64,000 nucleotides of DNA, from assembly GCF_002162375.1 (NCBI RefSeq), contig NZ_CP021425.1, forward strand, positions 5,953,276-6,017,275. The letters are read 5' to 3'. The position numbers and the translations under genes were made by a program. Position 1 is the stretch's first letter. Each line of letters opens with the position of its first letter. The notes beneath the pieces were generated by a model that made no database searches, had not been told where the DNA came from, and worked only from the letters and a program-made list of their open reading frames with translations. Below are positions 477 through 40,403 of the stretch, in pieces. This DNA is from Oleiphilus messinensis. GTDB taxonomy: Bacteria; Pseudomonadota; Gammaproteobacteria; Pseudomonadales; Oleiphilaceae.

Positions 477-1571
477 ATGCTTGTCATTTTTGGCCATGCA
501 GTGATGGGTCACAGAGGTATCCCGATGAGTACGGAACAGCAGACACGTAATCGCTTGGTACGCTACCCGGCGTTGTTTTCCCGCACCTATTTGGCCGTTC
601 TCGCGTCATGGGGCGTCAATATCGAGGACTTTCTGAGTGCGTCGGATCTCCCGGCGGATACGGCGACTCGCAGCCTGGGGCTGACTCAGGAAGAATACCA
701 ACGCCTGCTGGATGCCGTTCACCAGCAATTTGCCGACCGGGGACCGGGTCTGGAAATGGGCTGGCAGTTACCGCCCACAGCCTTTGGCAGCCTCGGGCAG
801 GCCACGCTATCCAGCGCAACCTTTGGTGCGGCACTGGCAATATGTGAACGGTACTGGAACCTGTTTGGCATGGGCATGGCCTGCAACCTGAACATTGCGC
901 CGGAGCTGAGCCATATTGAAATCATGGCTTTGCCGGAGATACCCCATCGACACCATCACATGGTACTGGAATCAACGTTGACCAGTGTTTACCGGGGCTG
1001 CGTGGCCTTGCTGCCCGAAGTACAGGGCCAAACCATCACCGAATTCACCTTCGCCGAGCCGGTTTATGCCGGGAAAGCACGGCACTATCTGGGCACGGTC
1101 AGATACGCTCAATCCGGCTGCCGAATTTCCTTTCCGACAGCCTTGCTTGATCAGCCATTGATGATGGCAAACGCCTTCGCCTTGCAAACGGCATTGCTGC
1201 AATGTGAACAGGATCAGCAGCTGAATCAACACCCTGGCTTTGCCGGACGCATCCGTAAAGAACTGGTGCTCACACCTGAGGGCTACCCCAGCTTCGATCA
1301 ACTTGCAGACAAGCTGCATATGAGCCCGAGAACCCTGCGTCGCTATTTGCAGAATGAAGGGGCCAGTTTTCTGAAGTTATTAAACGATGCCCGGAAACGG
1401 GATGCCCAGAACCTGCTGGAAAGACCCGAATTGGCCATTCAAGACGTGGCCCAGCGGCTGGGCTACAATGACCCGGCCAACTTCACCCGCGCCTTTCGCC
1501 TCTGGCTCGGCCTGACGCCAAGCCAGTACCGCGAGCAAAAAAATAGCCCCCTGAGTATAAAACTCAAGTAA
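477..1571 (+). CDS. AraC/XylS-family transcriptional regulator
   Basis: 364-aa ORF; C-terminal double HTH (LADKLHMSPRTLRRYL...DVAQRLGYNDPANFTRAFRLWLGLTPSQYR) typical of AraC family; start may be a downstream Met (MSTEQQ). Confidence 0.85.
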   Translation: MLVIFGHAVMGHRGIPMSTEQQTRNRLVRYPALFSRTYLAVLASWGVNIEDFLSASDLPADTATRSLGLTQEEYQRLLDAVHQQFADRGPGLEMGWQLPPTAFGSLGQATLSSATFGAALAICERYWNLFGMGMACNLNIAPELSHIEIMALPEIPHRHHHMVLESTLTSVYRGCVALLPEVQGQTITEFTFAEPVYAGKARHYLGTVRYAQSGCRISFPTALLDQPLMMANAFALQTALLQCEQDQQLNQHPGFAGRIRKELVLTPEGYPSFDQLADKLHMSPRTLRRYLQNEGASFLKLLNDARKRDAQNLLERPELAIQDVAQRLGYNDPANFTRAFRLWLGLTPSQYREQKNSPLSIKLK

Positions 1572-3465
1572 TTGAGGCCGCAGAATTGTCTGCACCGAGC
1601 CATGCCGTGTGAATACAATCCCGCCCCTGGTGCTTGGAATGGTAGAGCTCGGTATCCGCTTTTTCCAGATACGCCTGTGTGGGGGTATCTCCTTGGGGTA
1701 TGCCGACACAACAGCCAATACTGACCGTAAGATTTACCGGCCCGCCCCGTGTGTTGATCGCCGTATCGGAAATGGCACGTCTGATGCGTTCGGCAACATC
1801 GCAGGCCCGTTTCGAGTCCGGCTCAAGCAGCACCACACAAAACTCCTCGCCACCGTAACGGGCCACCAGATCTGTTTCCCGCACAACCGTGCTGATCCGC
1901 AGGGCGACTTCCTGCAGACAGTCATCCCCGACCAGATGCCCCTGCTCGTCGTTAATGGTTTTGAAATGGTCAATATCAATGAGAAACACCGCCATCACAC
2001 GGCTATAGCGCACGGCCCGGGCAATTTCCCGACTCATGAAATGCTCCAGATAGCGCCGGTTGCCAAGCTGGGTTAACTGATCCGTATCACTCAGTGTTTG
2101 CAGCTTCTCGTTCGCCAGCTGCAACTCCCGCGTGCGGTCTGCCACCCGGGTTTCCAGCTCCAGCGTCGCCAGGCGCTGGATTTCCAGGGCCCGCTGCTGG
2201 GCGCGCAAGCGGAGTGCCCGCTCATTGGCTATCCGCTCCGCCAGGGCAAAGGACAGCAGGATCACCTCCAGTAAAATGCCAATCTGAATCGCAGAGTTGG
2301 TAAACCGGTTACTGGGGAGAAAACCGTATTTGCTCAATCCCAAAAGCAGTACACCACAGGCAAGAATACCCCACGACAATGTGTACCAGCGGGCTGCCGG
2401 GATTTTCCGATACCAGGCCACGACCCCGAGAAAAATGGCCCAGGCACTGACCGCAACAGAGAACACCACCACCCACTGAATCAGCTGCGCATAGTCAATC
2501 AGTAATGACAAGACAACCAATACGGCACTGACGGCAATGGCAATCGACTGCAACCGGTTCACCCGGTGACTCAGAAAGCGCACCACAAAGCGGGCTGAAA
2601 AGGCCATCCCAAAAAACAGCGTAAGCGTGAGCACAAACAAGAGTATCCGGTCATTCCAGAGCTGCTCCTCCGGCCACAGGTACTGATAGGCCCACCCGCC
2701 AATACCGGCACTGAACAGCGCCATGCAAATCACGTAACCCACATAAAACAAATACACCACATCTCTCAGGCCGAGAAACAGCAACAGGTTATACACCGCG
2801 ATGATGATCAAGGCACCGAAAAAGCCGCCCTGAAACCAGCTATTTCGTGCATCATCCTCAAAGAACGCTAACGGTTGCCAGAATGAAATCGGCACCTGGA
2901 TCGAGCTACTGGAGTGCACCCGGATCAGAAGTTGTACTTGCGCCTTTTCTGGCAGGAGGAAGGGCACAACAAAATTGCGATTTTCGACATTACGCTCGGC
3001 GAAGGGGTACTTATCCCCCAGCTGCCATTGATTGCGCACCTGGCCATCCACTACCTCGTAGATCTGAATGTCATCCAAAACCGGATAAGCAATCTGCAAT
3101 AACCAATCCGTTACCGGCCCGGCGTTATAGACCTGAAACCGAATCCACCACGCCGAGTCCGAATAGCCTTTGTTGACCACGTTGTCGGTATGAATTTGCC
3201 AGGGAATAGAGTACTGGGTCAGTTCCGATATTGTTAATTCGCCGGATGCATCTTCATACACTTCGACCTGTTGACCCACCTCAACACGCTTGAGCTCTGC
3301 ATTTAACAGAACAGCGGCAACGCTCTTACCCGCAACGCCTGCCAATATAAAGCCGAAACTCAGGTTGAAAATAATCCACAGCCAGGGTGCAGGCCTGCAT
3401 GCTTGACGGGAATTGAGCGTTTTACTGTTTGAATTGGTCAAGATCATCTCGGAAAACCAGATCAT
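1564..3465 (-). CDS. 7TMR-DISM sensor diguanylate cyclase (GGDEF)
   Basis: Periplasmic N-domain, about 7 TM helices, coiled coil, then GGDEF domain with RYGGEEF and DxLTGL motifs; ORF extends to 3636 but the signal-peptide-like start MIWFSEM at 3465 is more likely. Confidence 0.8.
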   Translation of the reverse strand: MIWFSEMILTNSNSKTLNSRQACRPAPWLWIIFNLSFGFILAGVAGKSVAAVLLNAELKRVEVGQQVEVYEDASGELTISELTQYSIPWQIHTDNVVNKGYSDSAWWIRFQVYNAGPVTDWLLQIAYPVLDDIQIYEVVDGQVRNQWQLGDKYPFAERNVENRNFVVPFLLPEKAQVQLLIRVHSSSSIQVPISFWQPLAFFEDDARNSWFQGGFFGALIIIAVYNLLLFLGLRDVVYLFYVGYVICMALFSAGIGGWAYQYLWPEEQLWNDRILLFVLTLTLFFGMAFSARFVVRFLSHRVNRLQSIAIAVSAVLVVLSLLIDYAQLIQWVVVFSVAVSAWAIFLGVVAWYRKIPAARWYTLSWGILACGVLLLGLSKYGFLPSNRFTNSAIQIGILLEVILLSFALAERIANERALRLRAQQRALEIQRLATLELETRVADRTRELQLANEKLQTLSDTDQLTQLGNRRYLEHFMSREIARAVRYSRVMAVFLIDIDHFKTINDEQGHLVGDDCLQEVALRISTVVRETDLVARYGGEEFCVVLLEPDSKRACDVAERIRRAISDTAINTRGGPVNLTVSIGCCVGIPQGDTPTQAYLEKADTELYHSKHQGRDCIHTAWLGADNSAASIT

Positions 3466-3879
3466 GCTCTGGGATGGGTAAAAAAACGCTTGTAAATAAC
3501 AAGCGCAAAGGCAAGAAAACACTCTGGATGGGATCACCCAAAGCAAGCGCGGAATCCCTTCCAAAAGGCTAACTGGAAGTACTGCCAAAACAAGCCTTCC
3601 GGAGCCTATTAAGCTATTTCTGGAACAAATAGTCATTGTTTAAACAGGAGCTGGCGTTGTGATTTTCGGAATAACATTGAATCTTGCTAGCCAGTGCACG
3701 AGACATTGTTTAATCGGAAGACCTGTTTACCCGGCAGATCTGTTTACCCGACAAACCCGCTCCGGCTGATCTACGCAGATCCGGTTTTCTTATCTACACT
3801 TTAAAGAATGGAAGTGATGCTGCCTTTAACGGGAGCGTGATACCATTAAGGTGACACCGGCATCAGAAAGAAGAATTAC

Positions 3880-4602
3880 GTGAAATATCAGAGCAGGCCC
3901 ATGACCACGCTATTCAATAAAGAAGACCGCATACTCAAACAGTATCGGGCTATTATCGAAACCACCGAGCATGAAGGGCATCCTCTGGTTCATGATTTGA
4001 CCGCGTTGCTAAGTCACTATGAAGAACTCTTGAGCAAGTTTGACCGGCTGACAAAAGTGAGTGATAAACAGCAAATATCACTCCATGAAATGGCGCGGGT
4101 TGATGGCCTGACCGGGTTGAATAACCGGAAATATCTGGAAGATTTTTTGAAATTCGAATGGAAGCGCGCATCGGATCTCGATGTGCCCATGGCCATGATC
4201 ATGGTCGATATCGACTACTTCAAGTTATATAACGATACTTACGGCCACCAGGCTGGGGATCGGTGCCTGAAACAAGTTGGCGAAGTGCTGGCGCAAACGG
4301 TTAAACGCTCATCGGACTTTGTTGCGCGCTATGGCGGCGAGGAATTCACCATTGTATTAACCGACTGTCGCCACCACTATGCGGTAGATCTGGCAGAAAA
4401 GATCCAGCGCGCCATCAGCACCGCAGAAATTCGCCATGCCGGTTCGAAGGTCAGTGAATATGTCACGCTGAGTATGGGCATTGCAGTCTATCAACCGGGC
4501 AAGGGCTCATCACCCTCAGCGCTGTTGAGCGCAGCCGATGAAGCACTCTACCGGGCCAAGGAAAGCGGGCGAAACCGGTTTCATCTGGGGCGCATCGACT
4601 AA
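3880..4602 (+). CDS. GGDEF diguanylate cyclase, SiaD-like (short coiled N-region plus GGDEF)
   Basis: 240 aa; DGLTGLNNRKY, RYGGEEF, intact I-site-like RxxD; small size and neighbourhood (SiaC/SiaB-like genes) fit SiaD. Confidence 0.75.
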   Translation: MKYQSRPMTTLFNKEDRILKQYRAIIETTEHEGHPLVHDLTALLSHYEELLSKFDRLTKVSDKQQISLHEMARVDGLTGLNNRKYLEDFLKFEWKRASDLDVPMAMIMVDIDYFKLYNDTYGHQAGDRCLKQVGEVLAQTVKRSSDFVARYGGEEFTIVLTDCRHHYAVDLAEKIQRAISTAEIRHAGSKVSEYVTLSMGIAVYQPGKGSSPSALLSAADEALYRAKESGRNRFHLGRID

Positions 4603-5609: not shown

Positions 5610-5740
5610 TCGTTCTCCGCCAGGGGATGGGTTAATACGATTGTTGAGATCGTTTTCAGCGCGAAAAAACCCCGGAACATTACCACAAATGCCTGAAGTT
5701 TTACCATACTTTACGCTATTGAGAGATTCGCAACCGATAA

Positions 5741-8536
5741 GTGATCCAGATAATGAAACAACCTGTCCATTTGGCAACAGTATGGCTACTCCTGCTACTT
5801 TTCTCCAGCTTTGGCCACACCACACCACCGCTGCAATTTGAGCACCTTACAACAGCCCATGGTTTGTCCAGCAATCTGGTCACCACGACCCTTCAAGACG
5901 CCCAAGGATTCCTTTGGGTGGGTACGGAAAACGGCTTGAACCGTTTCGACGGCTACGAGTTTCAAATTCACCGTCGCAACGCCGCCGCTTCAGAGACGTT
6001 GAATAGCAACCATATCACTCAACTTTTCCTGGATCAGTCCGGTCAACTCTGGGTCGGAACCGCTCGGGGTCTGAACCGGTATAACCGGTCACAAAACCGG
6101 TTTTCCACCATTCCGGCGTATCGCGATACAACCCCGGACTCGACGGTCGCCTTGAGCATCACCAGCCTGGCAGAATCTCAGGAACGGCTCTTTGTTGGGT
6201 CATCTCAGGGGCTGTTCCAGTTCAATCCCGACAAGCAGCAACTGGCACCCGTTTCTGCTCCCGAGCACATCGCCCCTGCACTGCTCGATTCCGAAGTCAG
6301 TGCGCTGTTGTTCGATAGCGATGGCTATTTGTGGGTGGGTACCCATGAGGGTTTACACCAATGGAACCCGGTGGAACAAACCCTGAAGACCTACAGGCAC
6401 GATGAGCAGGACGACGAACAAACAGTAGGTAAAAAGACAATAATCGATAATACCATTCAGGCATTGTATGAAGACCGAAAAGGTCAAATCTGGATCGGCA
6501 TAGATGGTGGCCTGTCCCGCCTGAATCCGGAGACAGGTGTGATCCGTAACTTCTACCATGGTGAGGACGGACACAGCCCGGAACTGGTCGGGGACGAGGT
6601 GACGAGTATTCTGGAAGATGCAAACGGTAATATCTGGATTGCAACAACAGAAGGCTTGACCCGCTACAACCCGGCGGACGAAACCTTCACTGCACTCATC
6701 CATGAACCGCAACTGGCGGACTCGCTCGCCCACAGCAAAACCCGCTCCCTGACCATCGATCGTTCGGGCATCCTCTGGGTTGGCACCCAGGGCGGTGGAA
6801 TCAGCCGCCTGAACCTTCAGCCCAAGGCATTCTACCGCGAACAACATCACCCGGAGCTGGAAGCGTCATTAGGTTACGACTCGGTTTTATCCTTTCATGA
6901 AGATCATGCCGGACGCATTTGGGTCGGCATGGAGGACGAGGGGTTCAACCGCTTTGATCCTCGCACCGGCACTTTTGAGCGTTTTGAGTATGAGGCTGAG
7001 GATTTTACGCTGGAAGAAACCACCGAGGGTATTTTTTATATCGACTCCGGTGGTATTCACAAAGATCGAGTGCGATCCATTCAATCGGACCAACGGGGAA
7101 ATCTGTGGATGGGCACCAGCGAAGGGTTGGAATACTTTGACGTTGAAAATATTCGCTTTCGCCACTTTCACCCCAAAGCCGGTCGGCCACATAGTCTCAG
7201 CCATGAAAATATTGGTGTTTTGCTACTCACGTCCGAAGATACATTGTGGATTGGGACGCAAGAGGGCGGTCTGAACAAGTTTAACCCTGAAACCTACGAA
7301 AACGAGATTTTTCGCTACCGGGAAAATGACCCGAACACACTGGGCAGCGACCGGATCACCGCACTCCTGCAAGATCAACAGGGTACGCTCTGGATTGGTA
7401 CAGAAGGCGGAGGTCTTAACCGCTTTGATGCCAAACAGGGTAACTTCCAACGCTTTGCCTTGCCGTTGAAAAATAATCAAGCTGCAGCGAGTAGCAATTC
7501 CATCTGGACAATTTACCAGGCAGAAGATCACCGCCTGTGGGTGGGCACCGATGAGGGGTTATACCAATTCAGTCCGGATTCCGGCACGTTCACCCCCTCA
7601 CCGCTCACGCTGAATGGCGAAGCAAACCGGGTGCTGGGTATTGTCGAGGATGATCACAGCAATCTCTGGTTAAGCAAGGAGAACGGCATTACCAAGTTCA
7701 CCCCCAGCTCCGGTGCGGTGCAGAATTTCAATGCGCGCAACGGCTTGCCCACTGACCAGTTTTTGCCCGGGGCGTACTATCGGAGCAAGGCGGGTGACAT
7801 CTATCTGGGTTCCAATCAAGGCATGATCCACTTCAAACCCCACGAGATTACCACTAACCAACACGTGCCGGATGTTGTCCTGACCAAGCTGGAAATTCTG
7901 AACAATGCGGTTACCCCTGCTAGCGACGACAGCCCATTGCAGGTTGATATCACACAGGCAGACAGACTCTCCCTCTCTTATCAGGATAAAGCCATCACCC
8001 TGACGTTTTCCGCCCTGGATTTTGCCAATCCGGAAAACAACCAATACGCCTACAAGCTTGAAGGTTTCGACCCTGACTGGAATTTCATCGGGCATCGACG
8101 GGTTGTGAGCTACACCAGCCTGCCGGGAGGGAATTACACATTCAAAGTCCGGGGCTCCAACAATGATCAGGTCTGGAATGAAGAAGGCATTAACCTGCCG
8201 ATATTTGTCGCCCCGCCCCCCTGGCTGACTTGGTGGGCCTACACCTTGTACGGTTTAACACTCATCGCGATCATCGCGGGTATTGCCCGCTACAGAACGC
8301 TGAAAATTGAACGGCAGTTAGTGGAGCAGGAAAAAGCGAACCGGATACTGGAGCACAAAGTTGCAGACCGCACCAAAGAACTAAACGTCAAGAACGAGCA
8401 ATTGTTCCGTTCCAATCAGAATATTTTGAGCAGTATTCGCTATGCCCAGAAAATCCAGCATTCCCTGCTACCCAACCAGTCCATGGTGCAACAGCTGTTT
8501 GGCGACTGTTTTATTGTTTGGGAACCGTTTTCATAA
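5741..8536 (+). CDS. SiaA-like sensor, N-terminal 931 aa: signal peptide, beta-propeller two-component-regulator repeats, Y_Y_Y domain, TM helix, coiled coil; truncated at entry to the PP2C domain by IS insertion
   Basis: Many repeats of the xWxGTxxGLxxxD Reg_prop motif, Y_Y_Y-like region ([35 protein letters not shown]), [20 protein letters not shown], then [16 protein letters not shown] typical of the first PP2C motif; ORF ends 3 codons after WEP. Confidence 0.8.
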
Positions 8537-8575
8537 ACCTGCTTAAACCTACTCAAGGTTTAAACGAGCCTATCC

Positions 8576-10231
8576 CTACAGCGCAGGGTGCGCGGAAAGC
8601 AGGGTTACGCTTTCCTGAATCAAGTCGGGACTCATGCCCGGTCTACCATCAAGGCGAGCCTCGACGGAGTAACTAACCCGATTCACACGACGAAAGTGAC
8701 GCCAGCCACTCAGAAAATCTAATGATTTTTCGAGTGGTTGGTACCAACGCTGAAGTTTGTTGTAATACTGATAATCCCCGAGCGCCATCCTTACAGGCGG
8801 ATGCTCGGTCTTAACGGTACCCTTCGCGTTAATACCAATGAGTTGTTTTGGCGGCTTTTCTTTAAAGCCATAATGCCGACGACCAATCACTAACGCGGCC
8901 GCGTGGTGATCTGAAAAACCGTGTCGATCGCGATACTTCATCCGCCCCAATAATGAGGTATAAGCCGGATTGACGTGATATAGGCGTATGCCGCGTTTAA
9001 TGCTTTGCGTTTCAATCAAGTCCTTGATCTTACCGTAAGCAAAGGCATTCAACATGCGGGCATACTGAGGATGATCCTGCTTTTGGTATTGCCGTTTCTT
9101 TTGCTGAAAATCCAGCTTTTCGATCACCACCGCTTTACCTTGCTGTGCGGCAAAGTCCATCAGGTCTCGTACGGCATCCCCAATAATAGCCGCTCGTTGA
9201 GCATCATTCTTATAGTGCAAAGGTAAGTCAAACGTTCGGTGTTGCAGTGGGTTACCGTTCCGATCCAGCTCGACGACCGCTAAGTGATCCGGGTTGACAT
9301 CCACACCAATGACACCTTGATCAGCATCGATCCACTCTGCTTGCGCTGTTGGTCCTGCCACTTCCACGCTAACGAGTAACCGCCAACCTTTTTTGTCTCG
9401 CTTAAATCGAAAACTCAGGGGTTGCCCTTTGATTGATTTATCGAGTTTTTTAACCTGATTCTGCCAGACGGCTTGGGCAATAGCCGCCTTACCATGCTTG
9501 AATTTCAGGCAATCAATGTTAATGGTCGTGCCGAACGTAGCGCGTAATTGATGGGGTACCAGGAGTTTTAGCTGGTAAGCATCATCTTGCTCACTGGGCG
9601 ATAGCTGGGCATTTTGACAGCCCCAGGATTCATCATGAGAACCCACCAATAGAAATTCGCGGTGTCGTGCTTCGTGCCAGCGTTGTTTCCAGCCTTCAAT
9701 GGCCGAACCCGTTTCTAACGCTTGACGCTCTTTCAGCAGCTTTCGACCGCCGAAACAAATGGGGGTTTTATTTGCCTGTTTTTCGGCCACCAAGGCGGCC
9801 TGCTTTTGCTGCCAACGATGCAGTTTCACTTCCTTCTGCCGTAGCGTGTTACGAAGTTGTTTTGCCTGTTGCGGGCAGCCTTTCTCTGCGACATGATCAC
9901 AGCGCTTCTTTAATTTGTTGAGCGTTTTCTCCAGCTGTTTGATTTTAACGTCCAGCGTCACCAATCGGTTGTTTCGATTGGTTTGGTAAGACTGGATTAA
10001 ACCTTTAATGCTTTGCCGGACGCCTTGAAACACCCGATAGCTGAACGGCATCCCCATTTCATGCATAAACTGGGTACGACTCAATTGCTGGGCTTTAGGC
10101 TTTTGTAAGTTAGCAAACCAACGAAACTTCACTTGATTCCACAGCTCGGCATAGTGGCACAATGCCGCATCCTGCTCATGAATCAAATTAAGCCGGGTTT
10201 CAAAGGTGAGTGTTTTCGTTAGCGTATCCAC
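8576..10231 (-). CDS. tnpB: TnpB (IS605/IS607 OrfB; RuvC-like RNA-guided nuclease family), 551 aa
   Basis: OrfB N-region, RuvC-like core, hallmark GIRLYHVNPAYTSLLG motif and C-terminal zinc-finger region. Confidence 0.85.
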   Translation of the reverse strand: MDTLTKTLTFETRLNLIHEQDAALCHYAELWNQVKFRWFANLQKPKAQQLSRTQFMHEMGMPFSYRVFQGVRQSIKGLIQSYQTNRNNRLVTLDVKIKQLEKTLNKLKKRCDHVAEKGCPQQAKQLRNTLRQKEVKLHRWQQKQAALVAEKQANKTPICFGGRKLLKERQALETGSAIEGWKQRWHEARHREFLLVGSHDESWGCQNAQLSPSEQDDAYQLKLLVPHQLRATFGTTINIDCLKFKHGKAAIAQAVWQNQVKKLDKSIKGQPLSFRFKRDKKGWRLLVSVEVAGPTAQAEWIDADQGVIGVDVNPDHLAVVELDRNGNPLQHRTFDLPLHYKNDAQRAAIIGDAVRDLMDFAAQQGKAVVIEKLDFQQKKRQYQKQDHPQYARMLNAFAYGKIKDLIETQSIKRGIRLYHVNPAYTSLLGRMKYRDRHGFSDHHAAALVIGRRHYGFKEKPPKQLIGINAKGTVKTEHPPVRMALGDYQYYNKLQRWYQPLEKSLDFLSGWRHFRRVNRVSYSVEARLDGRPGMSPDLIQESVTLLSAHPAL

Positions 10232-29530: not shown

Positions 29531-30319
29531 TCAACAATAATTCGCAAACTTCATTTCTCGATCATTGTAATCGACCGGCATCATAGGTAATCGAATATAC
29601 GCCTTGATGATTGAAGTCGTTCTCTGCTTTCGTGCAACTACAGTACCTTCTCTGCTACCCGCCGCGTTTGTATTACCTTCTATCGTTGAGATCAGAGAGC
29701 CTTTGTTTTCCGTCACAATTCCGATATGTGAGAAAGTAAATACAACAATATCTCCCCGCATGGCTTTGGTAAATGTATCTTTTGGGGTAAACACCAAACA
29801 GTTTTTACGGGTTGCCCACTCATTTAGAAAACGCTGTACTGAAGGTTCTCTCGGCGGGATGAGTGAAGCATAGTAGGGAGACTGCGAACATAACTTCTGA
29901 ACACAAAGTGAAACGAAAGCAGCACACCACGGATAACCATCCGTCCTGCCATTGATAACTAAATCATCTGCCTTGAATATCTCCAACATTTTGGGACTAT
30001 TACCGGCTAGATTATTACCCGTTTCAGTGGTTCCGATATATTGTTCGGCAATGTCGGCCAATAAATGCTGAGGAAGCGAGTTTGAAAAATGAGGCAATGT
30101 TGCCTGAGACAATGCAAACCAAGTTCCACGTCCGACAATACCGTCAACAGATAGCTTAGCCTCAACTTGAAATCGCTTGACGGCTGCCACTGTCTGCGCG
30201 CCAAAGTCACCATCAACACTCAGGTTTGGTGAAGGTGAGAGCAATCGATTCAAGAGCTTTTGTAAGGTCATCACGTCAGCGCCACGGGAGCCTTTTCTGA
30301 TCGTTTTTTTCTGGGTCAT
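29531..30319 (-). CDS. peptidoglycan-binding (PG_binding_1) plus C-terminal Cys/His peptidoglycan hydrolase-like domain
   Basis: N-terminal GADVMTLQKLLNRL...DGDFGAQTVAAVKRFQ PG_binding_1 motif; C-terminal conserved Cys (YPWCAAFVS) and His (FSHIGIV) of CHAP/NlpC-like amidases. Confidence 0.55.
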   Translation of the reverse strand: MTQKKTIRKGSRGADVMTLQKLLNRLLSPSPNLSVDGDFGAQTVAAVKRFQVEAKLSVDGIVGRGTWFALSQATLPHFSNSLPQHLLADIAEQYIGTTETGNNLAGNSPKMLEIFKADDLVINGRTDGYPWCAAFVSLCVQKLCSQSPYYASLIPPREPSVQRFLNEWATRKNCLVFTPKDTFTKAMRGDIVVFTFSHIGIVTENKGSLISTIEGNTNAAGSREGTVVARKQRTTSIIKAYIRLPMMPVDYNDREMKFANYC

Positions 30320-30343: not shown

Positions 30344-30823
30344 CTATTTTTTCAGTCGATAATATATCCATAAATCTGAAGGGAGGCCTTCAACATTGGA
30401 AGACGACTCCAACAACAATACACCACCAACCACAAACTGCCCAGTTAAACCGGTGGCACTAAGGCGACCATCCTTCACGCAAAGGACATTGTATTGTTGA
30501 GTTTGAACCGGCAATCCGGGTTCAAAAAAACTACGAATAAGTGACGACTCACCATTGGTGGTACTCAATTTAACTGAAGCTGTCGCCCCACCAATTTCGG
30601 CATCAAACTCACTGCCTGATTGAGTATTTATAAATTCAAACGAGGTGCTGTCGACCACGTCAGTTCCCACCAAAATGCTTGATGTGGAAACGATGCTGGT
30701 CGCGTAAGAGGCTTCACAATGCCCATTTGATTGCTCAGCGGATACGCTTTGAGGGGTAAATGTACATGCAGGTATAAGTAAAGCAATTGAAGCCAGACTT
30801 ACAAATTTTCGAAGACTATCCAT
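30344..30823 (-). CDS. small lipoprotein, unknown function
   Basis: Signal peptide with lipobox LIPAC; directly upstream of the PG hydrolase gene. Confidence 0.45.
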   Translation of the reverse strand: MDSLRKFVSLASIALLIPACTFTPQSVSAEQSNGHCEASYATSIVSTSSILVGTDVVDSTSFEFINTQSGSEFDAEIGGATASVKLSTTNGESSLIRSFFEPGLPVQTQQYNVLCVKDGRLSATGLTGQFVVGGVLLLESSSNVEGLPSDLWIYYRLKK

Positions 30824-32579: not shown

Positions 32580-32925
32580 GGCGTTACTCCTTGATTACAC
32601 GAAGCTCAATCATTGCTTCTATTTCAAATAAAACGGGTGAGGGGTAGCAGGGTCAACCGACATGCTTGAACGCCCTCTGATGATCCTCCCGATCTACTGC
32701 TTGGATCAACTTGCGGGACAGTTCCGCAGGGGCTCTACAACTCCCCCATTTGAAACACATTCCGTTATGCCAGGCGTAGCCTGATACGCTGCTCACCCGC
32801 GTTGGTACTACTGGCCGGACACGCAACCAACAACTTTGGTGCCCGGAATTCATACCGCTTTTGGGGCAAAGCCCCGTTCTCGTTAATGAGTCTAGGGAGT
32901 CGAACCCTAACCTTTCGGTTTACCG

Positions 32926-32999
32926 TGGCTTGTACAGGAGTTGAACCTGTGACCTATCAGTTATGAGCTGACTGCTCTATCCAACTGAGCTAACAAGCA
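32926..32999 (-). tRNA. tRNA-Met (anticodon CAU; elongator-like), acceptor 5' base irregular
   Basis: Reverse complement reads GCTTGTTAGCTCAGTTGGATAGAGCAGTCAGCTCATAACTGATAGGTCACAGGTTCAACTCCTGTACAAGCCA: D-arm GCTC/GAGC, anticodon loop CTCATAA, T-arm ACAGG-TTCAACT-CCTGT; the 5'-terminal acceptor position mismatches. Confidence 0.6.
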
Positions 33000-33319: not shown

Positions 33320-33620
33320 AATTTAATAGTCCAGCGCTACGCTTAATGATTGCCGCCCTTGGAGATGCCAGCCAATTTGCAAATGGGTGGCAAATATCCG
33401 CGTGGCTTGGATTGACACTAAAACCAGTTGAGTGGATGCCTTCAACGAGTTACCGCTCGATTCATGATGCAAAACGGAATGTGAGTTACTTCCTGATGAA
33501 TTATTACAACTGGTAAAGACCGCATCAGTTCAATGATGGGCTACCACCGGTAAGCGCTGAAAAATTCGCTCAAAAAGTGTCCGGGTTTTATTGGCCACTA
33601 CAAAGAGCTTATTGATGATT
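33320..33620 (+). pseudogene. IS3-family transposase OrfB C-terminal remnant (frameshifted)
   Basis: Translations across frames give ...NIRVAWID... and YFLMNYYNWxRPHQFNDGLPPVSAEKF (IS3 OrfB C-terminal signature); no intact ORF. Confidence 0.5.
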
Positions 33621-33810: not shown

Positions 33811-34200
33811 TCAAGCCCCTTTAACTTTCAAAAGAGTATTTATTACATCCTCTGACGAACCAATATTTCTTGCATACTCAAGCACGCTTCTGCCATCATC
33901 ATTTTTTGAATTTACACGTGCCCCAGATCTTATTAACAACTCTAAAACCTTTGGATTGCCGCCTATTACTCCGTTGAATATAGGTGAACATCCATTGTCT
34001 CCTTTTGCGTTAACATCCGCTCCTGCATCTATTAAAATCCTCGCTGATTCGAGATCCCCCCACGAACAAACCGTATGTAATGGAGTATCATCCATGAGGT
34101 TTACACAATTGACTCCATTCAACTCGATGCCAAACCAAGATGCTGTATCTGAACAGCGTGCAAGTACACTGCTTAAGTCATTTTTCATAACTAAAAACAC
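33811..34200 (-). CDS. ankyrin-repeat protein, candidate immunity protein for upstream RHS-CT toxin
   Basis: Three ANK repeats (DDTPLHTVCSWGDLESARILIDAGADVNAKGDNGCSPIF...); 10-nt overlap with toxin gene end. Confidence 0.7.
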   Translation of the reverse strand: MFLVMKNDLSSVLARCSDTASWFGIELNGVNCVNLMDDTPLHTVCSWGDLESARILIDAGADVNAKGDNGCSPIFNGVIGGNPKVLELLIRSGARVNSKNDDGRSVLEYARNIGSSEDVINTLLKVKGA

Positions 34201-34886
34201 TCCTGCTTACAGTTTCGCTTAATATCTTCCACTGCATTGATTATTCGCTGCTTCACTTGTTGCAACTGACCCTGATGTTTGTTCCAAGCAGAACTTCCAG
34301 ACTCATCCCATTTATCTGACCAATTCTTCCGTAAGTCGTAACAAAGTTGAGCTTGATCTCGTTTTCTTTCTGCGTCTATACAAGGGTCGCCACTTGGAGG
34401 AGGTGGTGGCTGGTCACATATTTTGTGATACCTAGCATGCTGAGCATCCTTTCGTGCCGAATCTCCTGGCATGAGCGCAAGAGCTGCTATCCCTATACCG
34501 GCAGCAACATCCATAGGGCCAGGCACAGGAGAGTCAGACAATGCTAAAGCGATAGCAGCTTCAGCATCTAATCCATAAGGATCGACATAAATTACCGGGT
34601 TTTGATTTGCGTACCCATAAGTATTGATCCCGCCCCCTAGGCCAACAGGATCACTTTGCAAATACCGGCCTAACGTGGGATCGTAATCCCGATAGTAATT
34701 GTAGTAATACCCGGTCTCCCGATCATGATATTGCCCAGGAAAGCGAATATCCTGTCCGATGGTGTTGACCACTTCGGTGACTTCGCCGAAGGGGGTGTAT
34801 TCGCCTTTCCACACCACATTTTGATTTTGATCTGTAAGCACCTGAAGGGTACCCAGGTGGTCTGTGTGGACGAAGTAGAGTTTGAT
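34191..34886 (-). CDS. orphan RHS-core C-terminal toxin module (5'-truncated, no signal peptide or proper start)
   Basis: Frame reads IKLYFVHTDHLGTLQVLTDQNQNVVWKGEYTPFGE...[43 protein letters not shown] (RHS repeat-associated core, TIGR03696-type) then a unique 100-aa tip; upstream in-frame stop at 34887; homology to 38861..39739 breaks at 34893. Confidence 0.65.
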   Translation of the reverse strand: MKLYFVHTDHLGTLQVLTDQNQNVVWKGEYTPFGEVTEVVNTIGQDIRFPGQYHDRETGYYYNYYRDYDPTLGRYLQSDPVGLGGGINTYGYANQNPVIYVDPYGLDAEAAIALALSDSPVPGPMDVAAGIGIAALALMPGDSARKDAQHARYHKICDQPPPPPSGDPCIDAERKRDQAQLCYDLRKNWSDKWDESGSSAWNKHQGQLQQVKQRIINAVEDIKRNCKQECF

Positions 34887-34971
34887 TCAGCATGCGCTAA
34901 TCCGCATCACCCACCGACTCTTAGTTCTCGGACTAATTAGGCAGAGTGTCTTACCCTGTGGTTAGAAAAGA

Positions 34972-35460
34972 TTAAGCAAAATTAAAGCGCACCCGATCGC
35001 CTATTTCTAAATCAAGAGCATCCAAATTGTCTTTCACCTTTAAGTCACCATCGATAGAGAAACAATTAATCCGACAAAGATTGTTAAATACTTCCAATTC
35101 TGCTTGGAAACAAAATCCTTCTTTAAATTCGGATGCCAAGAGTAATTTATCGTTTAATAAGACTTCTGTTCTGATGACTTGTACAGGATGAACTATACGC
35201 TTGTCTCCTTGACTTAGCTCTAAAGGAACATCAGAAGGTAAAATATTTGGTGGGCCTATCGTAATATCCAAAAAATCACCTTTCTGAAAGTTTTCATGAA
35301 TCCACATTCCACCTCTTCCATCAACTAACTTAAATGAGCAGGCAAAATTCACTGATCTGTCGGCATTGCTGATCAAAAGAGCTTTTAAGCTACCACTTGG
35401 CCCAGTGACTAGAACCTGCTCATCAAATTTACTGGACGAAACTATAAAGGAGTTGATCAC
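34972..35460 (-). CDS. hypothetical protein, candidate immunity for CT module 35461..36006
   Basis: 162-aa ORF starting immediately after toxin stop, same strand. Confidence 0.4.
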   Translation of the reverse strand: MINSFIVSSSKFDEQVLVTGPSGSLKALLISNADRSVNFACSFKLVDGRGGMWIHENFQKGDFLDITIGPPNILPSDVPLELSQGDKRIVHPVQVIRTEVLLNDKLLLASEFKEGFCFQAELEVFNNLCRINCFSIDGDLKVKDNLDALDLEIGDRVRFNFA

Positions 35461-36006
35461 TCAATGGCTCCAGGGGTTTACTGTCGGAACTTTTGGTAGA
35501 TTGGGATTAGTTTTATTAAATTCGTTCACTTTCCTGTTGTGCTGTTTAACATAATCCAAATAATTTTTGTTGCCGTGATCTTTATTGAATACATCCGGTC
35601 CTTTTTTCAAGTAATCGCTAATTTCATTCAATTCTTTGGCTTGGATGTCTACATCACCAAGGTGCCTTTTCAGGATGTCATCGAGAGCGTTGTATGGAAT
35701 ATCGCTCGCTCCAAAGGGATCATTTGCGGCTTCGTCGCTATATATTTTTCTTAAGTCCGGACAATGGTTCAGTTTTGGAAGCTTAAATTTCCATGGGCCG
35801 GGAAATATGTCTATCGGATTAATTGCATCAGGATGGTCAGGAACTGGATCTTGCGGCAATCCTGCAACAGTTAATAATGCTCCAGCCCCCCACAACAATA
35901 GCACTGGTACGGCTTCGCCAGTTGGATCTGTATACTTAACAGGGTTTTGAAATGTATATCCATAGGTATTTAGACCCCCAGCCAACCCAATAGGATCACT
36001 TTGCAA
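35461..36006 (-). CDS. orphan RHS-type C-terminal toxin module (starts inside the DPxGL motif)
   Basis: Begins [31 protein letters not shown] then unique 150-aa tip; only about 5 codons of core homology upstream (GRY), then in-frame stop. Confidence 0.55.
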
Positions 36007-36216
36007 ATACCGCCCTACTCAGAAGTCGGTTAGAATTCTGATCCAAATAACAAATCAATCATTATTCCAAAGCCACCCAATGCAAGCAGCCACAACAATA
36101 CAACCGGTGCTTGCATAAATCAGTAACACATCACCAATTAGACCTGCCCAGTAAGTGCCACCAATCACTAAAACGATGCCAAATAAAATTCTGTAGAGTG
36201 TTGCAGCCTTCAAAAT

Positions 36217-36606
36217 TTAGTAACCACAAGCAAAGTTTGGATTACTTGACCTGCAACTGAATGCACACGCAGCTGTTGATAGTCCTACATAACCAGCTGA
36301 AGCTGCACCACACATTTTCCCAGCCCCTTGTGAGATTAGACCTGAATTCTCACCAACAAATAACGCTGCACCTCCCCAACTTAGCTCTGCAGTATTAGTG
36401 GCGCCCATACATGCAGTCAAGCATGAGTAATAAGAATCTTCACACCGCCAATCATGTTTCGAGCCAGTTCCATTATTCATTGCACACTCCGCAGTAGCAC
36501 ACTCTTTTCTGTTATCTGTATCGCCACTGTTGCACATCGCTCCATTTGGTAACCCCATTTCTGCTGGACACGGCTCAGGCTTCAACCCTCGGCCTTTGTG
36601 GATCAC
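36217..36606 (-). CDS. Cys-rich (19 Cys/129 aa) putative toxin tip, preceded by frameshifted DPIGL core remnant
   Basis: Upstream 36640-36700 encodes [15 protein letters not shown] in another frame; junction contains G7 and C7 homopolymer runs. Confidence 0.35.
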   Translation of the reverse strand: MIHKGRGLKPEPCPAEMGLPNGAMCNSGDTDNRKECATAECAMNNGTGSKHDWRCEDSYYSCLTACMGATNTAELSWGGAALFVGENSGLISQGAGKMCGAASAGYVGLSTAACAFSCRSSNPNFACGY

Positions 36607-37180
36607 TATAGATAAGGGGGGGTTCCTAAAACATAAGTATTAATCCCCCCCGCCAACCCAATAGGATCACTTTGCAATTACAGTCCGCCTAGGCGAAATT
36701 CTAGCTATATCTGGCTACAATCCCAACGCATTCAATTACTTAAAAACCTCAAAACCCAACATTCTTTCACTCTAGCAGCTCACAATCCCCGACGCACTTT
36801 TTCCCTTAACTTTTATCATCGTCCGACTTGGTTTTTGCTCTTACGAACATGATTAAACAGACACTATTTGTCACTGTCGCGATATTCTCAATCCCAACCA
36901 TTCTTATTAATTCGATTATTTGTTCCATTATTCCTGTCCCCTTTTTTTAGACGACCCTTATTCTGTAGTCTGCTCAGATAATGCAAACAAGTAACCTGAC
37001 CATAGGTTTGGGCAGGTTAAATTTGGGCTTGCATCTGCTGACATTTTGATAAAGTCTGCCTAGCGGATCATTAGTTAAAGGGTCATCGGTCGGTGACCCT
37101 TTAACTCTTATAAGGAATAACGTGGGGGATTTAGGGCTTTTCTGAAGGGAAACAGGAGGCCAAAACCTCCTGATATTTAG

Positions 37181-37411
37181 TTAAGACTGGATAAGATGGA
37201 AGTAATGTTGAAAGATTTTGATGTAACGCTGCCAGCTATCTAACCGCTCCCAGGCTTCAATGACGGTATAACCTGCCGGTAAAAACTCCATGCGGTCGAG
37301 TACAAAGGCTGCCGCTATTTGTTCTCCGGTACTGGCTCCCCTGCTGCCACGGTTTTGTAGTTCGTTTGCCACATCGATGATCTTTTCAATTTCCCATTTC
37401 ATTTTATTCAC
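37181..37411 (-). CDS. hypothetical small protein (76 aa)
   Basis: ORF only; hairpin AGGAGGCCAAAACCTCCT just downstream of stop. Confidence 0.3.
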   Translation of the reverse strand: MNKMKWEIEKIIDVANELQNRGSRGASTGEQIAAAFVLDRMEFLPAGYTVIEAWERLDSWQRYIKIFQHYFHLIQS

Positions 37412-37699
37412 TCCTGTTAGTTTTATCGTTCGGGATCAAACCCGCTTCCGCTGTTGTATTGAGCCAGCAGCATCGCGCGCAGCCCCGTCAAGGGGGCTTT
37501 TCAGCGTAGCGGCCCTTGACGGGGCGAGCACGGTGCCACAATGCGCGAGCAACAGAGGGAGCCTTTAACGAAGCCGGGTACCCCTGCCCCCCAGCGGGGG
37601 CAAGGGGAGAAACAAAGGTTTTAAAGTGCGCTTGCGCCAGCCTTAGTTGTTCCCCTTGGGGCTAGGGGTAAACAAACCACCGCGGAGCTACGACATCCG

Positions 37700-38545
37700 A
37701 ACGCCAATACGCGTGAATGGGCTGGCACCAAGGCCAGTTTAATACGGCACTATTGGCCCACTTTTTAGCCGCCTTTAAGCAGGGCAAGCGTATTGGTGGG
37801 CGGGGGAGGAGCGGGAGAGGTGGAAGCTGCGCGCTCTATTGGCTTACCTGCAGCGACATCGTGATCAAGAAGGAACAGGAAGGCTAGGGGCGCTCTGTGA
37901 TTGAGCAATTGGCAAAGTATTTATCGAGCGAATTCCCTGGTGTGCAGGGCTTTTCCGCGCGGAATTTATGGCGGATGCGGGCATTTTACCAAGCTTATCC
38001 CAAAGCGCCTGAATTTCTGCCACAAGCTGTGGCAGAAACCGGGACAGAACCCAGTCTACCCGCCCAAATCACGCTATCACCCTGGGGACACCTGATCACC
38101 TTGATCGAGAAGGTCAAAGTCCCAGTCGTTCGACAATGGTACGCCCAAGCCGCTCTGGAATACCGTTGGTTTGGGGCCATACTGGTCCATCAGATCGAAT
38201 CACGGCTATATGACCGGCATGGCAATGCAGTCACCAACTTTACACATACTTTATATCGACCTCCTGTTTTATCACCTCAAGCTACGCTGCTATGTCGTGA
38301 TTGATCTCAAGATACAGGACTTCAAGCCAGAGTTTGCCGGCAAGATGAACTTTTATCTGTCCGCTGTGGATGATTTGTTACGGCACCCAACCGACAACCC
38401 AGCATATGCTTGGTTCTATGTAAATCCAACAACCGCATCGTGGCCGAGTATGCCCTGCGGGATGTGAACAAGCCGGTGGGCGTGGCCACCTATTTGACTG
38501 AGGCTTGCCGGACGCATTGCGTTCCAGTTTGCCAGATATTGAGTC
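37700..38545 (+). pseudogene. DUF1016 (YhcG-like, PDDEXK nuclease-like) gene, inactivated by in-frame stop and frameshifts
   Basis: Pieces ALYWLTCSDIVIKKEQEG*G-RSVIEQLAKYLSSEFPGVQGFSARNLWRMRAFY, DLLFYHLKLRCYVVIDLKIQDFKPEFAGKMNFYLSAVDD, IVAEYALRDVNKPVGVATYLTEA lie in three frames. Confidence 0.6.
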
Positions 38546-38600
38546 ATTGGAGGCCACGCTGGCGAAGACTGATAAACCGAAATAGACATAAGTGCCTGTC
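38345..38600 (+). repeat. direct repeat copy 1 (3' end of DUF1016 gene), about 90 percent identical to 40100..40330 with a 24-nt indel
   Basis: Alignment by eye: ccggcaagatgaacttttatctgtccgctgtggatgatttgttacggcacccaaccgac... recurs at 40100. Confidence 0.75.
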
Positions 38601-38621
38601 CCCACTGGTTTGTTTGCGTTC

Positions 38622-38864
38622 TTATTTTTTTCTCATTAAGAAAAGATTATACAAAACCAGAATCACAATAATCACAGGCCATGATACTAAGAACACAGTA
38701 TAAGCCATGCTCCCTGGTGTCCACCCATCTACATAGTTTCTCTCGTAAACCAACATCAGCAACCAATCTACCGGATACACTATTATGCCTGGAGCAACTA
38801 TAACTAATAAATACACAACAACCAGAGTAAAAAGAAGCCTTCTGGGGAACTTTCTTTTATTCAT
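38622..38864 (-). CDS. small two-TM membrane protein, candidate immunity for 38861..39739
   Basis: 80 aa, two hydrophobic helices, 4-nt overlap with toxin gene stop. Confidence 0.4.
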   Translation of the reverse strand: MNKRKFPRRLLFTLVVVYLLVIVAPGIIVYPVDWLLMLVYERNYVDGWTPGSMAYTVFLVSWPVIIVILVLYNLFLMRKK

Positions 38865-39739
38865 GGAATCGGTACCGTTGGACTGACATTCCGTAAATTA
38901 TTCCGGTTCAAATAATACGCTGAATCTATTTGATTCTTCAGATTATTTGAGTAAGAAATACCGCCCCCAGAAAGATTACCTATGTCTGGTAAACCAGCTC
39001 CACCCGCGTTTAGAACTCCAGTTGCAGCGTCAACACAATTTCCCCATGATCCCCTGTATTTGTCATTGTTTAACTGATTCTTTGCTTGTCTATCGGCAGC
39101 AGCTTCATTGGGTAAATCTACATAAACAGCATAATCGGGAGGACGGCCATATAAATCAACATCTTGATCATAGGAGCGATACTTAGAGTCAAACGGGTTC
39201 GCTCCTTGCTTGTCGGGATGATGACTAACATAAGTTCCATCATTTGTAAGAACCGCTGCATGCCCGTAAGCAGAATCATAGTTATTCCCCGAAGCGTTAG
39301 TGTAGCGCCCAGGCTTCCAAACATACAATGTGGCTAAACCATGTGGGTCAATATTGGTCAATGGATTTTGGAGAACATATCCATAAGTATTCAGACCGCC
39401 TCGCAAGCCAACAGGATCACTTTGAAAATATCTTCCTAACGTGGGATCGTAATCCCGATAGTAATTGTAGTAATACCCAGTCTCCCGATCATGGTATTGA
39501 CCGGGAAAGCGAATATCCTGTCCGATGGTATTGACCACTTCGGTGACTTCGCCGAAGGGGGTGTATTCACCTTTCCAAACCACATTTTGATTTTGATCTG
39601 TAAGGACCTGAGGGGTACCCAGGTGGTCGGTGTGGACGAAGTAGAGTTTTGATTCAGCATTCGCGGTGCCGGACAGCATGGCTAAGGAAACAGTCAGCAG
39701 GCAGGCGATGTTTTGTAAGATGTCTTTCAGATTTTTCAT
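38861..39739 (-). CDS. secreted RHS repeat-associated core domain protein with C-terminal toxin tip (signal peptide, no Rhs shell)
   Basis: MKNLKDILQNIACLLTVSLAMLSGTANA signal peptide; ESKLYFVHTDHLGTPQVLTDQNQNVVWKGEYTPFGE...[43 protein letters not shown]; unique 155-aa tip; AAGGA RBS. Confidence 0.75.
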   Translation of the reverse strand: MKNLKDILQNIACLLTVSLAMLSGTANAESKLYFVHTDHLGTPQVLTDQNQNVVWKGEYTPFGEVTEVVNTIGQDIRFPGQYHDRETGYYYNYYRDYDPTLGRYFQSDPVGLRGGLNTYGYVLQNPLTNIDPHGLATLYVWKPGRYTNASGNNYDSAYGHAAVLTNDGTYVSHHPDKQGANPFDSKYRSYDQDVDLYGRPPDYAVYVDLPNEAAADRQAKNQLNNDKYRGSWGNCVDAATGVLNAGGAGLPDIGNLSGGGISYSNNLKNQIDSAYYLNRNNLRNVSPTVPIP

Positions 39740-39749
39740 GACAATGTCC

Positions 39750-40105
39750 TTATTGTGCCAAGGCTAATATTTCTGCGGAATTCAGGCTGCTGCCGTCGGC
39801 AAACTCAATAAATTCAATACGGTAGACTGTATAAATAACGGCGTGCAATATCGTAATACGATCTCCACTAAGTTCCCCTTGCGCGTCCAGTAAATCTATC
39901 TGGATATGTGCGCCGACCTTACTAAACACCAATTGTTCAGGTGTGATCCCTTCACCGAATACGATTTTATCAGTTTGCCCCCGGTAATTATCGTTGTCAC
40001 GAATGGTGTCAATGCCATCCCCCCGTTCAAAGTAGTAGGTATCAGCACTCGCAAATTCAATCAGGGTGCCATCACCCGGGCCACCGGTAATTTGCTGGCA
40101 AGGTG
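39750..40105 (-). pseudogene. fragment of a T1SS-secreted (RTX-type) protein C-terminal secretion domain
   Basis: ITGGPGDGTLIEFASADTYYFERGDGIDTIRDNDNYRGQTDKIVFGEGITPEQLVFSKVGAHIQIDLL...DRITILHAV...IEFADGS matches GDGxDTI...DxIxF..GI...L.F type I secretion C-terminal target pattern; N-terminal 80 codons of the ORF are antisense of the DUF1016 repeat (not real). Confidence 0.5.
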
Positions 40106-40330
40106 AACTTTTATTTGTCCGCTGTGGATGATTTGTTACGGCACCCAACCGACACCCCAGCATAGGCTTGATTCTATGTAAATCCAACAACCGCATCGTG
40201 GCCGAGTATGCCTTGCGGGATGTGAACAAGCCGGTGGGTTGGCCACCTATTTGACTGAGGCCTTGCCGGATATTGAGTTGTTGGAGGCCACGCTGGCGAA
40301 GACTGATAAACCGAAAGAGACATAAGTGCC
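40100..40330 (+). repeat. direct repeat copy 2 (isolated 3' end of DUF1016 gene)
   Basis: See copy 1; encodes ...NRIVAEYALRDVNKPVG...LTEALPDIELLEATLAKTDKPKET* with a frameshift. Confidence 0.75.
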
Positions 40331-40403
40331 TGTCCCCATTGTCTTGCGTCAAGAATTATGTTGATGCGTTTTACGCATTACGTTACATTCGCTATAAATA
40401 CTT

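Follow-up and report, generated by a model that had tools for sequence, protein, structure and literature searches.

Rhs toxins are usually pictured as single giant proteins, each wrapping its own toxin and riding the spike of a type VI secretion system (T6SS), and spare Rhs tips as silent DNA awaiting recombination. The rhs loci of Escherichia coli and Salmonella contain orphan toxin/immunity cassettes that arose by C-terminal displacement, and WapA of Bacillus is a polymorphic toxin with a YD shell that depends on Sec for its export. Single-chain, Sec-dependent YD-shell toxins are already known (PMC13018210, PMC3482391), among them the bacterial teneurin-like proteins, which are also polymorphic toxins (PMC13018210), and the toxin complex (Tc) of Yersinia entomophaga packages TcC toxins whose genes lie at separate loci (PMC11067744). 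Here we describe a 64-kb window (the whole stretch of DNA analyzed) of the Oleiphilus messinensis genome that carries an array of four modules with an Rhs core, designated A to D, with all of their genes on the minus strand. We read the region as the decaying remnant of a Sec-dependent split-Rhs polymorphic-toxin locus, in which the YD shell and a short "cartridge" of plug and toxin would be separate exported proteins, and we put the probability of this reading at roughly 70%. The array itself is an ordinary kind of object, a set of orphan Rhs toxin/immunity cassettes.

The complete gene of the array, gene D (38861 to 39739), is 100% identical to OLMES_5273. The original prediction took it for the intact gene; it encodes not a full-length Rhs but a 292-aa signal-peptide protein, made up of a 28-aa leader, the final ~105 residues of an Rhs protein, and a toxin tip, and no YD shell was found in the polypeptide, in which Pfam recognized no RHS_repeat domain. 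The product starts with MKNLKDILQNIACLLTVSLAMLSGTANA followed by ES and then runs straight into KLYFVHTDHLGTPQ, which belongs to PF03527. The leader (39656 to 39739) is a candidate Sec-type signal peptide with a basic n-region, a hydrophobic h-region, and an A-N-A site; signal peptides here and below were called by a hydrophobicity heuristic and by eye, with no trained predictor. The plug/autoprotease core (residues 29 to 135; 39335 to 39655) matches PF03527 (4e-14) and the full length of TIGR03696 (Rhs_assc_core; 89 bits, 1.7e-25) and ends in DPVGL-(18)-DPHGL, an autoprotease motif at which cleavage is predicted. In an AlphaFold2 (AF2) model, a confident N-terminal helix (residues 2 to 24) precedes β-hairpins over residues 34 to 92, and Foldseek matched the hairpins and core to the C-terminal cores of RhsP, RhsA, Tse15, and TccC3 at 35 to 43% identity. 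The gene is fully open, with leader, core motifs, and catalytic His and Cys all intact.

The 157-aa tip of D (38864 to 39334) has a permuted papain-like His-Cys fold. Its His25 and Cys100 are invariant in eight relatives, and a profile of these tip-D relatives matches the structure of Vibrio vulnificus MARTX RID (5xn7; E value, 2.6e-7), with an alignment that pairs "ATLYVWKP...GHAAV" and "NC" with the corresponding RID segments. The conserved His lies upstream of the conserved Cys, as in RID and permuted papain-like enzymes; Foldseek of the tip gave no match. From the invariant residues and the profile match, tip D is a permuted papain-like His-Cys hydrolase or acyltransferase related to MARTX RID, TseH, and YiiX. 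It differs from these NlpC/P60-LRAT proteins in that it shares only ~22% identity with them, has no Pfam hit, and has an integral membrane protein as its immunity partner. This immunity candidate (38622 to 38864), the start codon of which overlaps the stop codon of the toxin gene, is an 80-aa protein with two hydrophobic segments, predicted to be transmembrane (TM), and a partner embedded in the membrane suggests that tip D acts at the envelope. The reaction could be acyl transfer or the hydrolysis of peptidoglycan or lipid.

Almost all of the 120 best database relatives of gene D (P0001 to P0120) are 190 to 330 aa long, and their hosts are mostly marine Gammaproteobacteria (Hahella, Marinobacter, Oceanicoccus, Halioxenophilus, and Granulosicoccaceae), with a few in other phyla. 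By the hydrophobicity heuristic, 84 of the 120 have a Met start and a hydrophobic leader of less than 75 aa before the core; the N-termini are diverse leaders with an n-region, an h-region, and AxA, placed directly before the conserved core. Eight other homologs of the 120 are long or fused forms. A profile search of contigs, with one genome per species, gave at least 80 loci and both architectures: fused Rhs proteins have 700 to 2,000 in-frame residues upstream of the core, and short forms have a leader instead.

Shell and cartridge genes are adjacent in the relatives, where the short gene lies directly 3′ of a full shell gene in seven loci and of a shell remnant in one (L016). Three of the seven were reached through individual relatives of gene D. 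In L002 the short gene directly follows a shell gene at 5723 to 9424; in L004 it starts at 4560, after a shell gene that spans 766 to 4557; and in the Hahella locus L005 it starts at 10001, after shell pieces that extend to 9986. The upstream genes of these three loci encode RHS repeats and no core, with DUF6531 where the N-terminal part is present. The remaining four (L009, L015, L023, and L060), in each of which the shell gene ends immediately 5′ of the short gene, are all of the further short-form loci with enough flanking sequence and an intact upstream gene. The shell proteins carry signal peptides of their own, and Pfam analysis of seven of them found RHS_repeat, DUF6531, and Ig (immunoglobulin-like), TSP3, or RTX modules only and no TcA, SpvB, or β-propeller domain. 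They stop at a "...YLNGVPVAVLV" strand, which in fused Rhs proteins precedes "xLYFVHTDHLGTPQ," and a variable extension follows. Fused forms have Golvesin_C or Ig-type insertions exactly where the split forms divide. With a short, leader-bearing gene directly after a Sec-exported, core-less shell gene, the family is that of a two-gene Rhs. No description of a split, doubly Sec-targeted Rhs was found in the literature searched, outside which most subscription journals lie, and the gene D family is a split variant of Rhs that is so far undescribed in that searchable literature. The tips of the family are also Cys rich (3.2% Cys, with at least four Cys in 43 of 96), which fits an oxidizing, extracytoplasmic route.

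Complete cartridges also occur away from shell genes. Several kilobases from its shell gene, L004 contains a further three complete short genes. Each has a leader and is followed by a small ORF (open reading frame), and one has a 59-aa CBM_6 fragment upstream (L004, 11362 to 12395). In L016 (9298 to 10627), a shell stump starting "...DGEPLAMWRD" directly precedes an intact short gene. From these stumps of shell extensions before complete cartridges, the displaced unit seems to be the cartridge together with the end of the shell gene.

In intact relatives, Rhs is divided between two polypeptides, and both have a signal peptide. The shell protein, of ~800 to 1,800 aa, is made of YD repeats, in many cases with an N-terminal DUF6531, and beyond its last strand it has a variable extension of the Ig, TSP3, Golvesin_C, CBM, or RTX/HCBP type. 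The cartridge, of 190 to 330 aa, comprises a signal peptide, the final ~105 Rhs residues (the PF03527 strands and the TIGR03696 plug with its DPxGL-(18)-DPxG[L/E] motif), and a variable tip, with the immunity gene following. Shell and cartridge would be exported separately by Sec and assembled outside the cytoplasm in the manner of the TcB/TcC cocoon, after which the plug would cleave off and enclose the tip. By this scheme, the O. messinensis window retains the last ~113 codons of a shell gene, an intact cartridge D with its two-TM immunity gene, and, downstream of D and co-oriented with it, three displaced, 5′-cut cartridges (C, B, and A), each with an open small gene. Recombination within the conserved core would have displaced cartridges A to C, and in O. 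messinensis the main use of the locus would now be as a store of immunity genes and a substrate for recombination, given that no cognate shell gene is nearby.

The probable shell remnant lies at 39753 to 40091 on the minus strand, where the last ~113 codons of a reading frame encode an RTX/HCBP_related C-terminal module (Pfam HCBP_related, 3.9e-06); the stop codon of this frame lies 10 nt upstream of gene D. The fragment is 33% identical (E value, 2e-9) to the HCBP module in the shell extension of L015, a metagenome-assembled genome of Oleiphilaceae in whose 1,378-aa shell protein the YD repeats are followed by He_PIG, RTX-nonapeptide, and two HCBP_related modules. The same module closes the 838-aa shell protein P0137, with which the fragment aligns co-terminally at 27% identity (E value, 5e-12). 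These matches to the C-terminal extensions of two shell proteins lead us to interpret the fragment, which had been listed as RTX debris, as probably the 3′ stump of the lost split-Rhs shell gene. Upstream of it, the frame enters a DUF1016 repeat. This second copy of a DUF1016 3′ fragment (40091 to 40346, plus strand; 256 nt) abuts the truncation point of the shell gene, and the first copy is the 3′ part of a DUF1016/YhcG pseudogene (38333 to 38612, plus strand; repeat families D3 and D5; YhcG_C, 3.9e-21). The two direct repeats are 92 to 95% identical and bracket the stump, gene D, and the D immunity gene (~1.5 kb). This arrangement suggests that the remainder of the shell gene was lost through a duplication or deletion.

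A survey of the ORFs of the window, with selected ORFs profiled against Pfam, found none of shell size and none resembling VgrG or PAAR; no ORF exceeded 1,044 aa, and there was no T6SS-like cluster. The 6.38-Mb O. messinensis replicon contributed no protein to the 120 best matches to the Oleiphilaceae shell, no O. messinensis locus was among the matches listed in the profile search of genome contigs, and a look-up of gene D for shell context returned only a 1.4-kb metagenome contig. It is the shell stump, combined with the absence of a shell, VgrG, or PAAR gene from the 64 kb, that points to a decaying split-Rhs array.

The presence of four Rhs-core modules is real and far beyond chance. A 55-nt segment encoding the first DPxGL motif occurs four times (34616 to 34670, 35961 to 36015, 36632 to 36686, and 39382 to 39436) at 78 to 100% identity, and the TIGR03696 profile recognizes modules D, A, and B, which bears out the four RHS-core segments of the original prediction. 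Module A, as the 216-aa ORF OLMES_5266 (34191 to 34841), matches the profile over its full length (90 bits, 8.7e-26), and module B (35461 to 36006) matches it partially, over profile positions 46 to 75, with 32.8 bits (cutoff, 32.5). The statement that the cores end in DPxGL holds for D and for A (DPVGL-18-DPYGL) and fails for B (DPIGL-18-DPTGE), and in the remnant of module C the DPxGL-(18)-DPxG[L/E] motif is disrupted by frameshifts. Pairwise alignment put the 5′ limits of homology at 34897 for A, 36017 for B, and ~36681 to 36690 for C, within a few bases of the predicted breakpoints (34893, 36012, and ~36700).

Truncation is graded: A is cut in the signal peptide, B is cut in the core, and C is reduced to a pseudogene. 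The segment of module A at 34569 to 34897 comprises the complete core and, ahead of it, the ~5 final codons of a signal peptide; it contains a 1-nt deletion. Its homology to D starts in the c-region of the signal peptide, in the last five leader codons (GCGaATGCTGAATC), and by retaining this leader end A can be seen to descend from a short gene of the D type. The A/D alignment (34897 to 34612 versus 39664 to 39378) covers 286 nt at 92% identity with one 1-nt gap and breaks off abruptly at the core/tip junction, the trace expected of past tip replacement by recombination. The 125-aa tip of A (34194 to 34568), with relatives P0050, P0111, P0109, and L083, is followed by a 129-aa ankyrin-repeat immunity protein (33811 to 34200; Ank_2, 1.8e-14). 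Module B retains the last ~34 core codons (35914 to 36017), a 150-aa tip with a hydrophobic N-terminal stretch (35464 to 35913), and a 162-aa immunity candidate (34972 to 35460), designated by its position directly after the B stop codon and without a protein family match. Among 1.84 billion representative proteins, a search with tip B found itself and two weak matches only, and it is treated as a singleton. Immediately behind the cleavage motif, tips A and B, like many others of the family, open with hydrophobic sequence rich in Gly and Ala. Neither A nor B has a start codon or a leader, and their tip reading frames are open.

Module C is a pseudogene. Its core remnant (36632 to 36690), delineated by repeat family D4, three-frame translation, and alignment with B and D, is reduced to 15 residues; a TAT-to-TAA stop closely precedes it, and two or more frameshifts part it from the 129-aa, Cys/Gly/Ala-rich tip ORF (36217 to 36606). 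A 52-aa hydrophobic ORF (36055 to 36213), picked out by hydropathy, is its immunity candidate. None of tips A to D had a Pfam match at E values up to 10, and PDB sequence searches gave no significant match for tips A, B, and C or for the B immunity candidate. As predicted, a different small gene follows each tip (ankyrin, 162 aa, 52 aa, and 80 aa with two TM segments), and all four of these small ORFs are intact.

The pairing of toxin and immunity genes is conserved in other genomes for modules A and D. Tip-A relatives in L087 and L088 have ankyrin proteins of 127 to 128 aa directly downstream, the starts of which overlap the toxin genes, and the tip-A relative in L083 has an ankyrin-like match downstream. 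The tip-D relative P0002 (46% identical; L086) has directly downstream an 86-aa two-TM ORF with 40% identity to the immunity candidate of D (E value, 4e-20). The claim that the small ORFs are conserved partners is therefore supported for A and D, where the pairs recur; tip B is without relatives, and the small ORFs of B and C are candidate partners. In the L086 array that carries this tip-D relative, the toxin ahead of it has behind it a 273-aa ankyrin protein (1180 to 2001) that begins with a hydrophobic leader or anchor, from which it appears that ankyrin immunity proteins can be extracytoplasmic in these systems.

Two other observations were made between modules D and C. A 76-aa ORF (37181 to 37411, minus strand) has a good Shine-Dalgarno sequence and a strong terminator hairpin at 37153 to 37172; it matches no family and could be an isolated gene for an immunity protein or antitoxin. 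The segment from 37500 to 37900 has 57% G+C, against 38 to 51% in the adjacent array, with no convincing ORF and no Rfam match.

The original prediction also placed the array in a tRNA-Met-linked island. The tRNA-Met gene (32925 to 32999, minus strand) and Zur are both genuine flanking features. The island is not borne out: the 5′ end of the tRNA gene faces the array, no integrase-sized ORF was found in the region from 33 to 41 kb, and there was no tRNA-derived direct repeat of at least 25 nt (the search threshold) and no inverted repeat was found. G+C is 38 to 48% over most of 33.0 to 37.5 kb and 38.5 to 40 kb, against 50 to 55% in the zur/znu flank, and this low G+C is the only island-like trait of the array. 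The only syntenic relative recovered, from a metagenome scan (L090; Band_7 neighbor, 69% identical), has tRNA-Met beside Band_7 and an rtcR-like gene beyond, and is too distant to judge. The tRNA was the only Rfam match. As to the debris that the original prediction listed in the locus, the DUF1016 N- and C-terminal fragments and an HCBP_related (RTX-type) fragment were verified by profile, and the other items were recognized by eye: insertion sequence debris (33346 to 33516) without a Pfam match, and a vapBC-like remnant with a weak DUF2281 match and a PIN-like fragment, the latter likewise without one. Just 3′ of tRNA-Met, at 32890 to 32920, there is a T-arm-like sequence (minus strand, GGGTTCGACTCCCTAGAC) not called by ARAGORN, which may be a tRNA fragment left by integration on the other side of the tRNA. 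Further out on that side, a PG_binding_1 plus CHAP protein, of the cell wall amidase/peptidase kind (29531 to 30319), has a 159-aa lipoprotein-like ORF (30344 to 30823) immediately upstream and co-oriented; the two could be another envelope-targeting toxin/immunity pair, or the former a cell wall enzyme.

Several points weigh against a decaying split-Rhs locus. The signal-peptide calls are provisional, and in the model of the isolated cartridge D, AF2 confidence is low at the DPxGL region. The assignment of the shell remnant is moderately supported, by 27 to 33% identity in a widespread RTX/HCBP module, and the fragment has two database relatives only. We infer the assembly of shell and cartridge in trans by analogy. 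A trans-acting shell may be encoded elsewhere in the genome, in which case D could be functional, and the open state of D, of the A and B frames, and of all four small genes could reflect ongoing selection rather than decay.

Open small genes are also what would be seen if the locus were purely a defensive immunity island, with its toxins neither expressed nor delivered and the four small genes alone under selection as protection against the cartridges of neighboring cells. The loss of the shell, the pseudogene state of C, the missing start codons and leaders of A and B, and the mobile-element debris around the locus all agree with this, as does a promoter scan that found no convincing sites, although the number of sites was below that in shuffled sequence and the scan is uninformative. 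Selection on the small genes alone does not explain why gene D is fully open with its leader, core motifs, and catalytic His and Cys, or why the tip frames of A and B are open, and with tip B and its partner lacking relatives there may be no external threat for that immunity gene to meet. We regard a purely defensive island as rather unlikely.

The intactness of D despite the loss of its shell gene, a situation repeated in L016, could also mean that no shell is needed. The short proteins would then be stand-alone toxins that leave by Sec and then by a type II secretion system or outer membrane vesicles, with the ~105-aa core as a self-cleaving prodomain or a recombination handle, and D would be fully functional here. 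The core does hold the entire DPxGL-(18)-DPxGL protease motif, and the three further leader-bearing short genes of L004 are complete at kilobases from the shell gene. Yet a shell gene or its remnant directly precedes the short gene in every locus with enough flanking sequence, the split point falls exactly at the domain-insertion site of the fused forms, and the first ~60 mature residues are shell β-hairpins (PF25023/PF03527) that would have no structural context if there were no shell. These features make stand-alone toxins improbable. That the region is a classical T6SS-type orphan array, with the 292-aa ORF as its longest fragment behind a fortuitous start codon, is a very remote prospect: the Rhs core profiles match, 5′ truncation is graded, every tip has an immunity-like gene behind it, and the D core is 35 to 43% identical to T6SS Rhs cores of known structure, but D begins with a canonical Sec leader that has equivalents in 84 of 120 divergent homologs, the upstream partner in eight other loci is a core-less shell gene with a signal peptide or its remnant, A keeps the end of a signal peptide, and the window has no VgrG, PAAR, or T6SS genes. 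D as a chance ORF on a truncated classical rhs gene was rejected on the strength of the Sec leader, the leaders of its homologs, and the adjacency to shell genes elsewhere.

Compared with described systems, the O. messinensis array resembles the Rhs orphan cassettes (PMC3482391) in its serial, co-oriented, 5′-truncated cores with differing tips and small immunity genes, and in the abrupt stop of homology to the complete gene at the core/tip junction. To this extent the displaced-orphan reading of the original prediction stands: the truncated core fragments are homologous to gene D, co-oriented with it, and downstream of it, with tips and immunity genes. It does not stand for the complete gene, which is not a classical Rhs. 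Here that gene encodes 292 aa, whereas theirs encodes a PAAR/VgrG-linked Rhs of ~1,400 aa, and gene D opens with a Sec leader and not with the PAAR/VgrG-binding N-terminus of T6SS Rhs proteins. Orphans of the split family can be whole genes, capable of translation and export on their own, as in L004, and, again unlike the orphan cassettes, the window has no shell gene in cis able to use a switched tip. The original prediction that the tips are kept for tip-switching is not supported; the one trace of exchange is historical, in the 92% identity of the A and D cores up to the tip junction.

The split Rhs resembles WapA and the teneurin-like proteins in its export by signal peptide, in a YD shell around a polymorphic C-terminal toxin, in its adjacent immunity genes, and in having no dedicated injection machine. 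Unlike those single polypeptides, it has its plug and toxin as a separate product with its own leader. The Tc complex of Yersinia entomophaga is the closest functional precedent. As in the TcB/TcC cocoon, a YD/Rhs shell would be formed from two separately encoded polypeptides, the second bearing an autoproteolytic core and a variable toxin, and, as with Tc toxins, alternative toxin subunits lie at other loci. In contrast to TcB/TcC, the split lies much nearer the C-terminus, so that the second protein holds only the last hairpins and the plug; both proteins carry Sec leaders; and no TcA, SpvB, or β-propeller is seen. The split Rhs also differs in having immunity genes, which suggests that it is directed against bacteria and not insects.

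A further proposal about the split Rhs is that cartridges are interchangeable, each being exported alone and docking outside the cytoplasm into a reusable, separately exported shell. We advance this tentatively, as a possibility that we would at present sooner doubt than accept. With interchangeable cartridges and one reusable shell, a single shell gene could deploy all complete cartridges at once. If this is true, toxin diversity would come from combining proteins and not from recombining DNA, "orphans" that keep their leaders, as in L004, would be live ammunition and not silent spares, and the O. messinensis window would be the end state after loss of the shell.

The window is a degraded toxin/immunity array in a mobile-element-rich genome, and its locus is a degraded example of the split Rhs variant. 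Together with its relatives, it points to a route other than the single giant protein, one in which shell and plug-toxin are separate Sec-exported proteins and a spare plug-toxin can have a complete gene of its own. Should the parts assemble after export, this would explain the use of Rhs toxins in Gram-negative bacteria without T6SS-linked Rhs and would provide a simple two-plasmid system for studying how toxins are loaded into Rhs cages. Short "RHS repeat-associated core domain" proteins, which now look like fragments, would then need to be reannotated.

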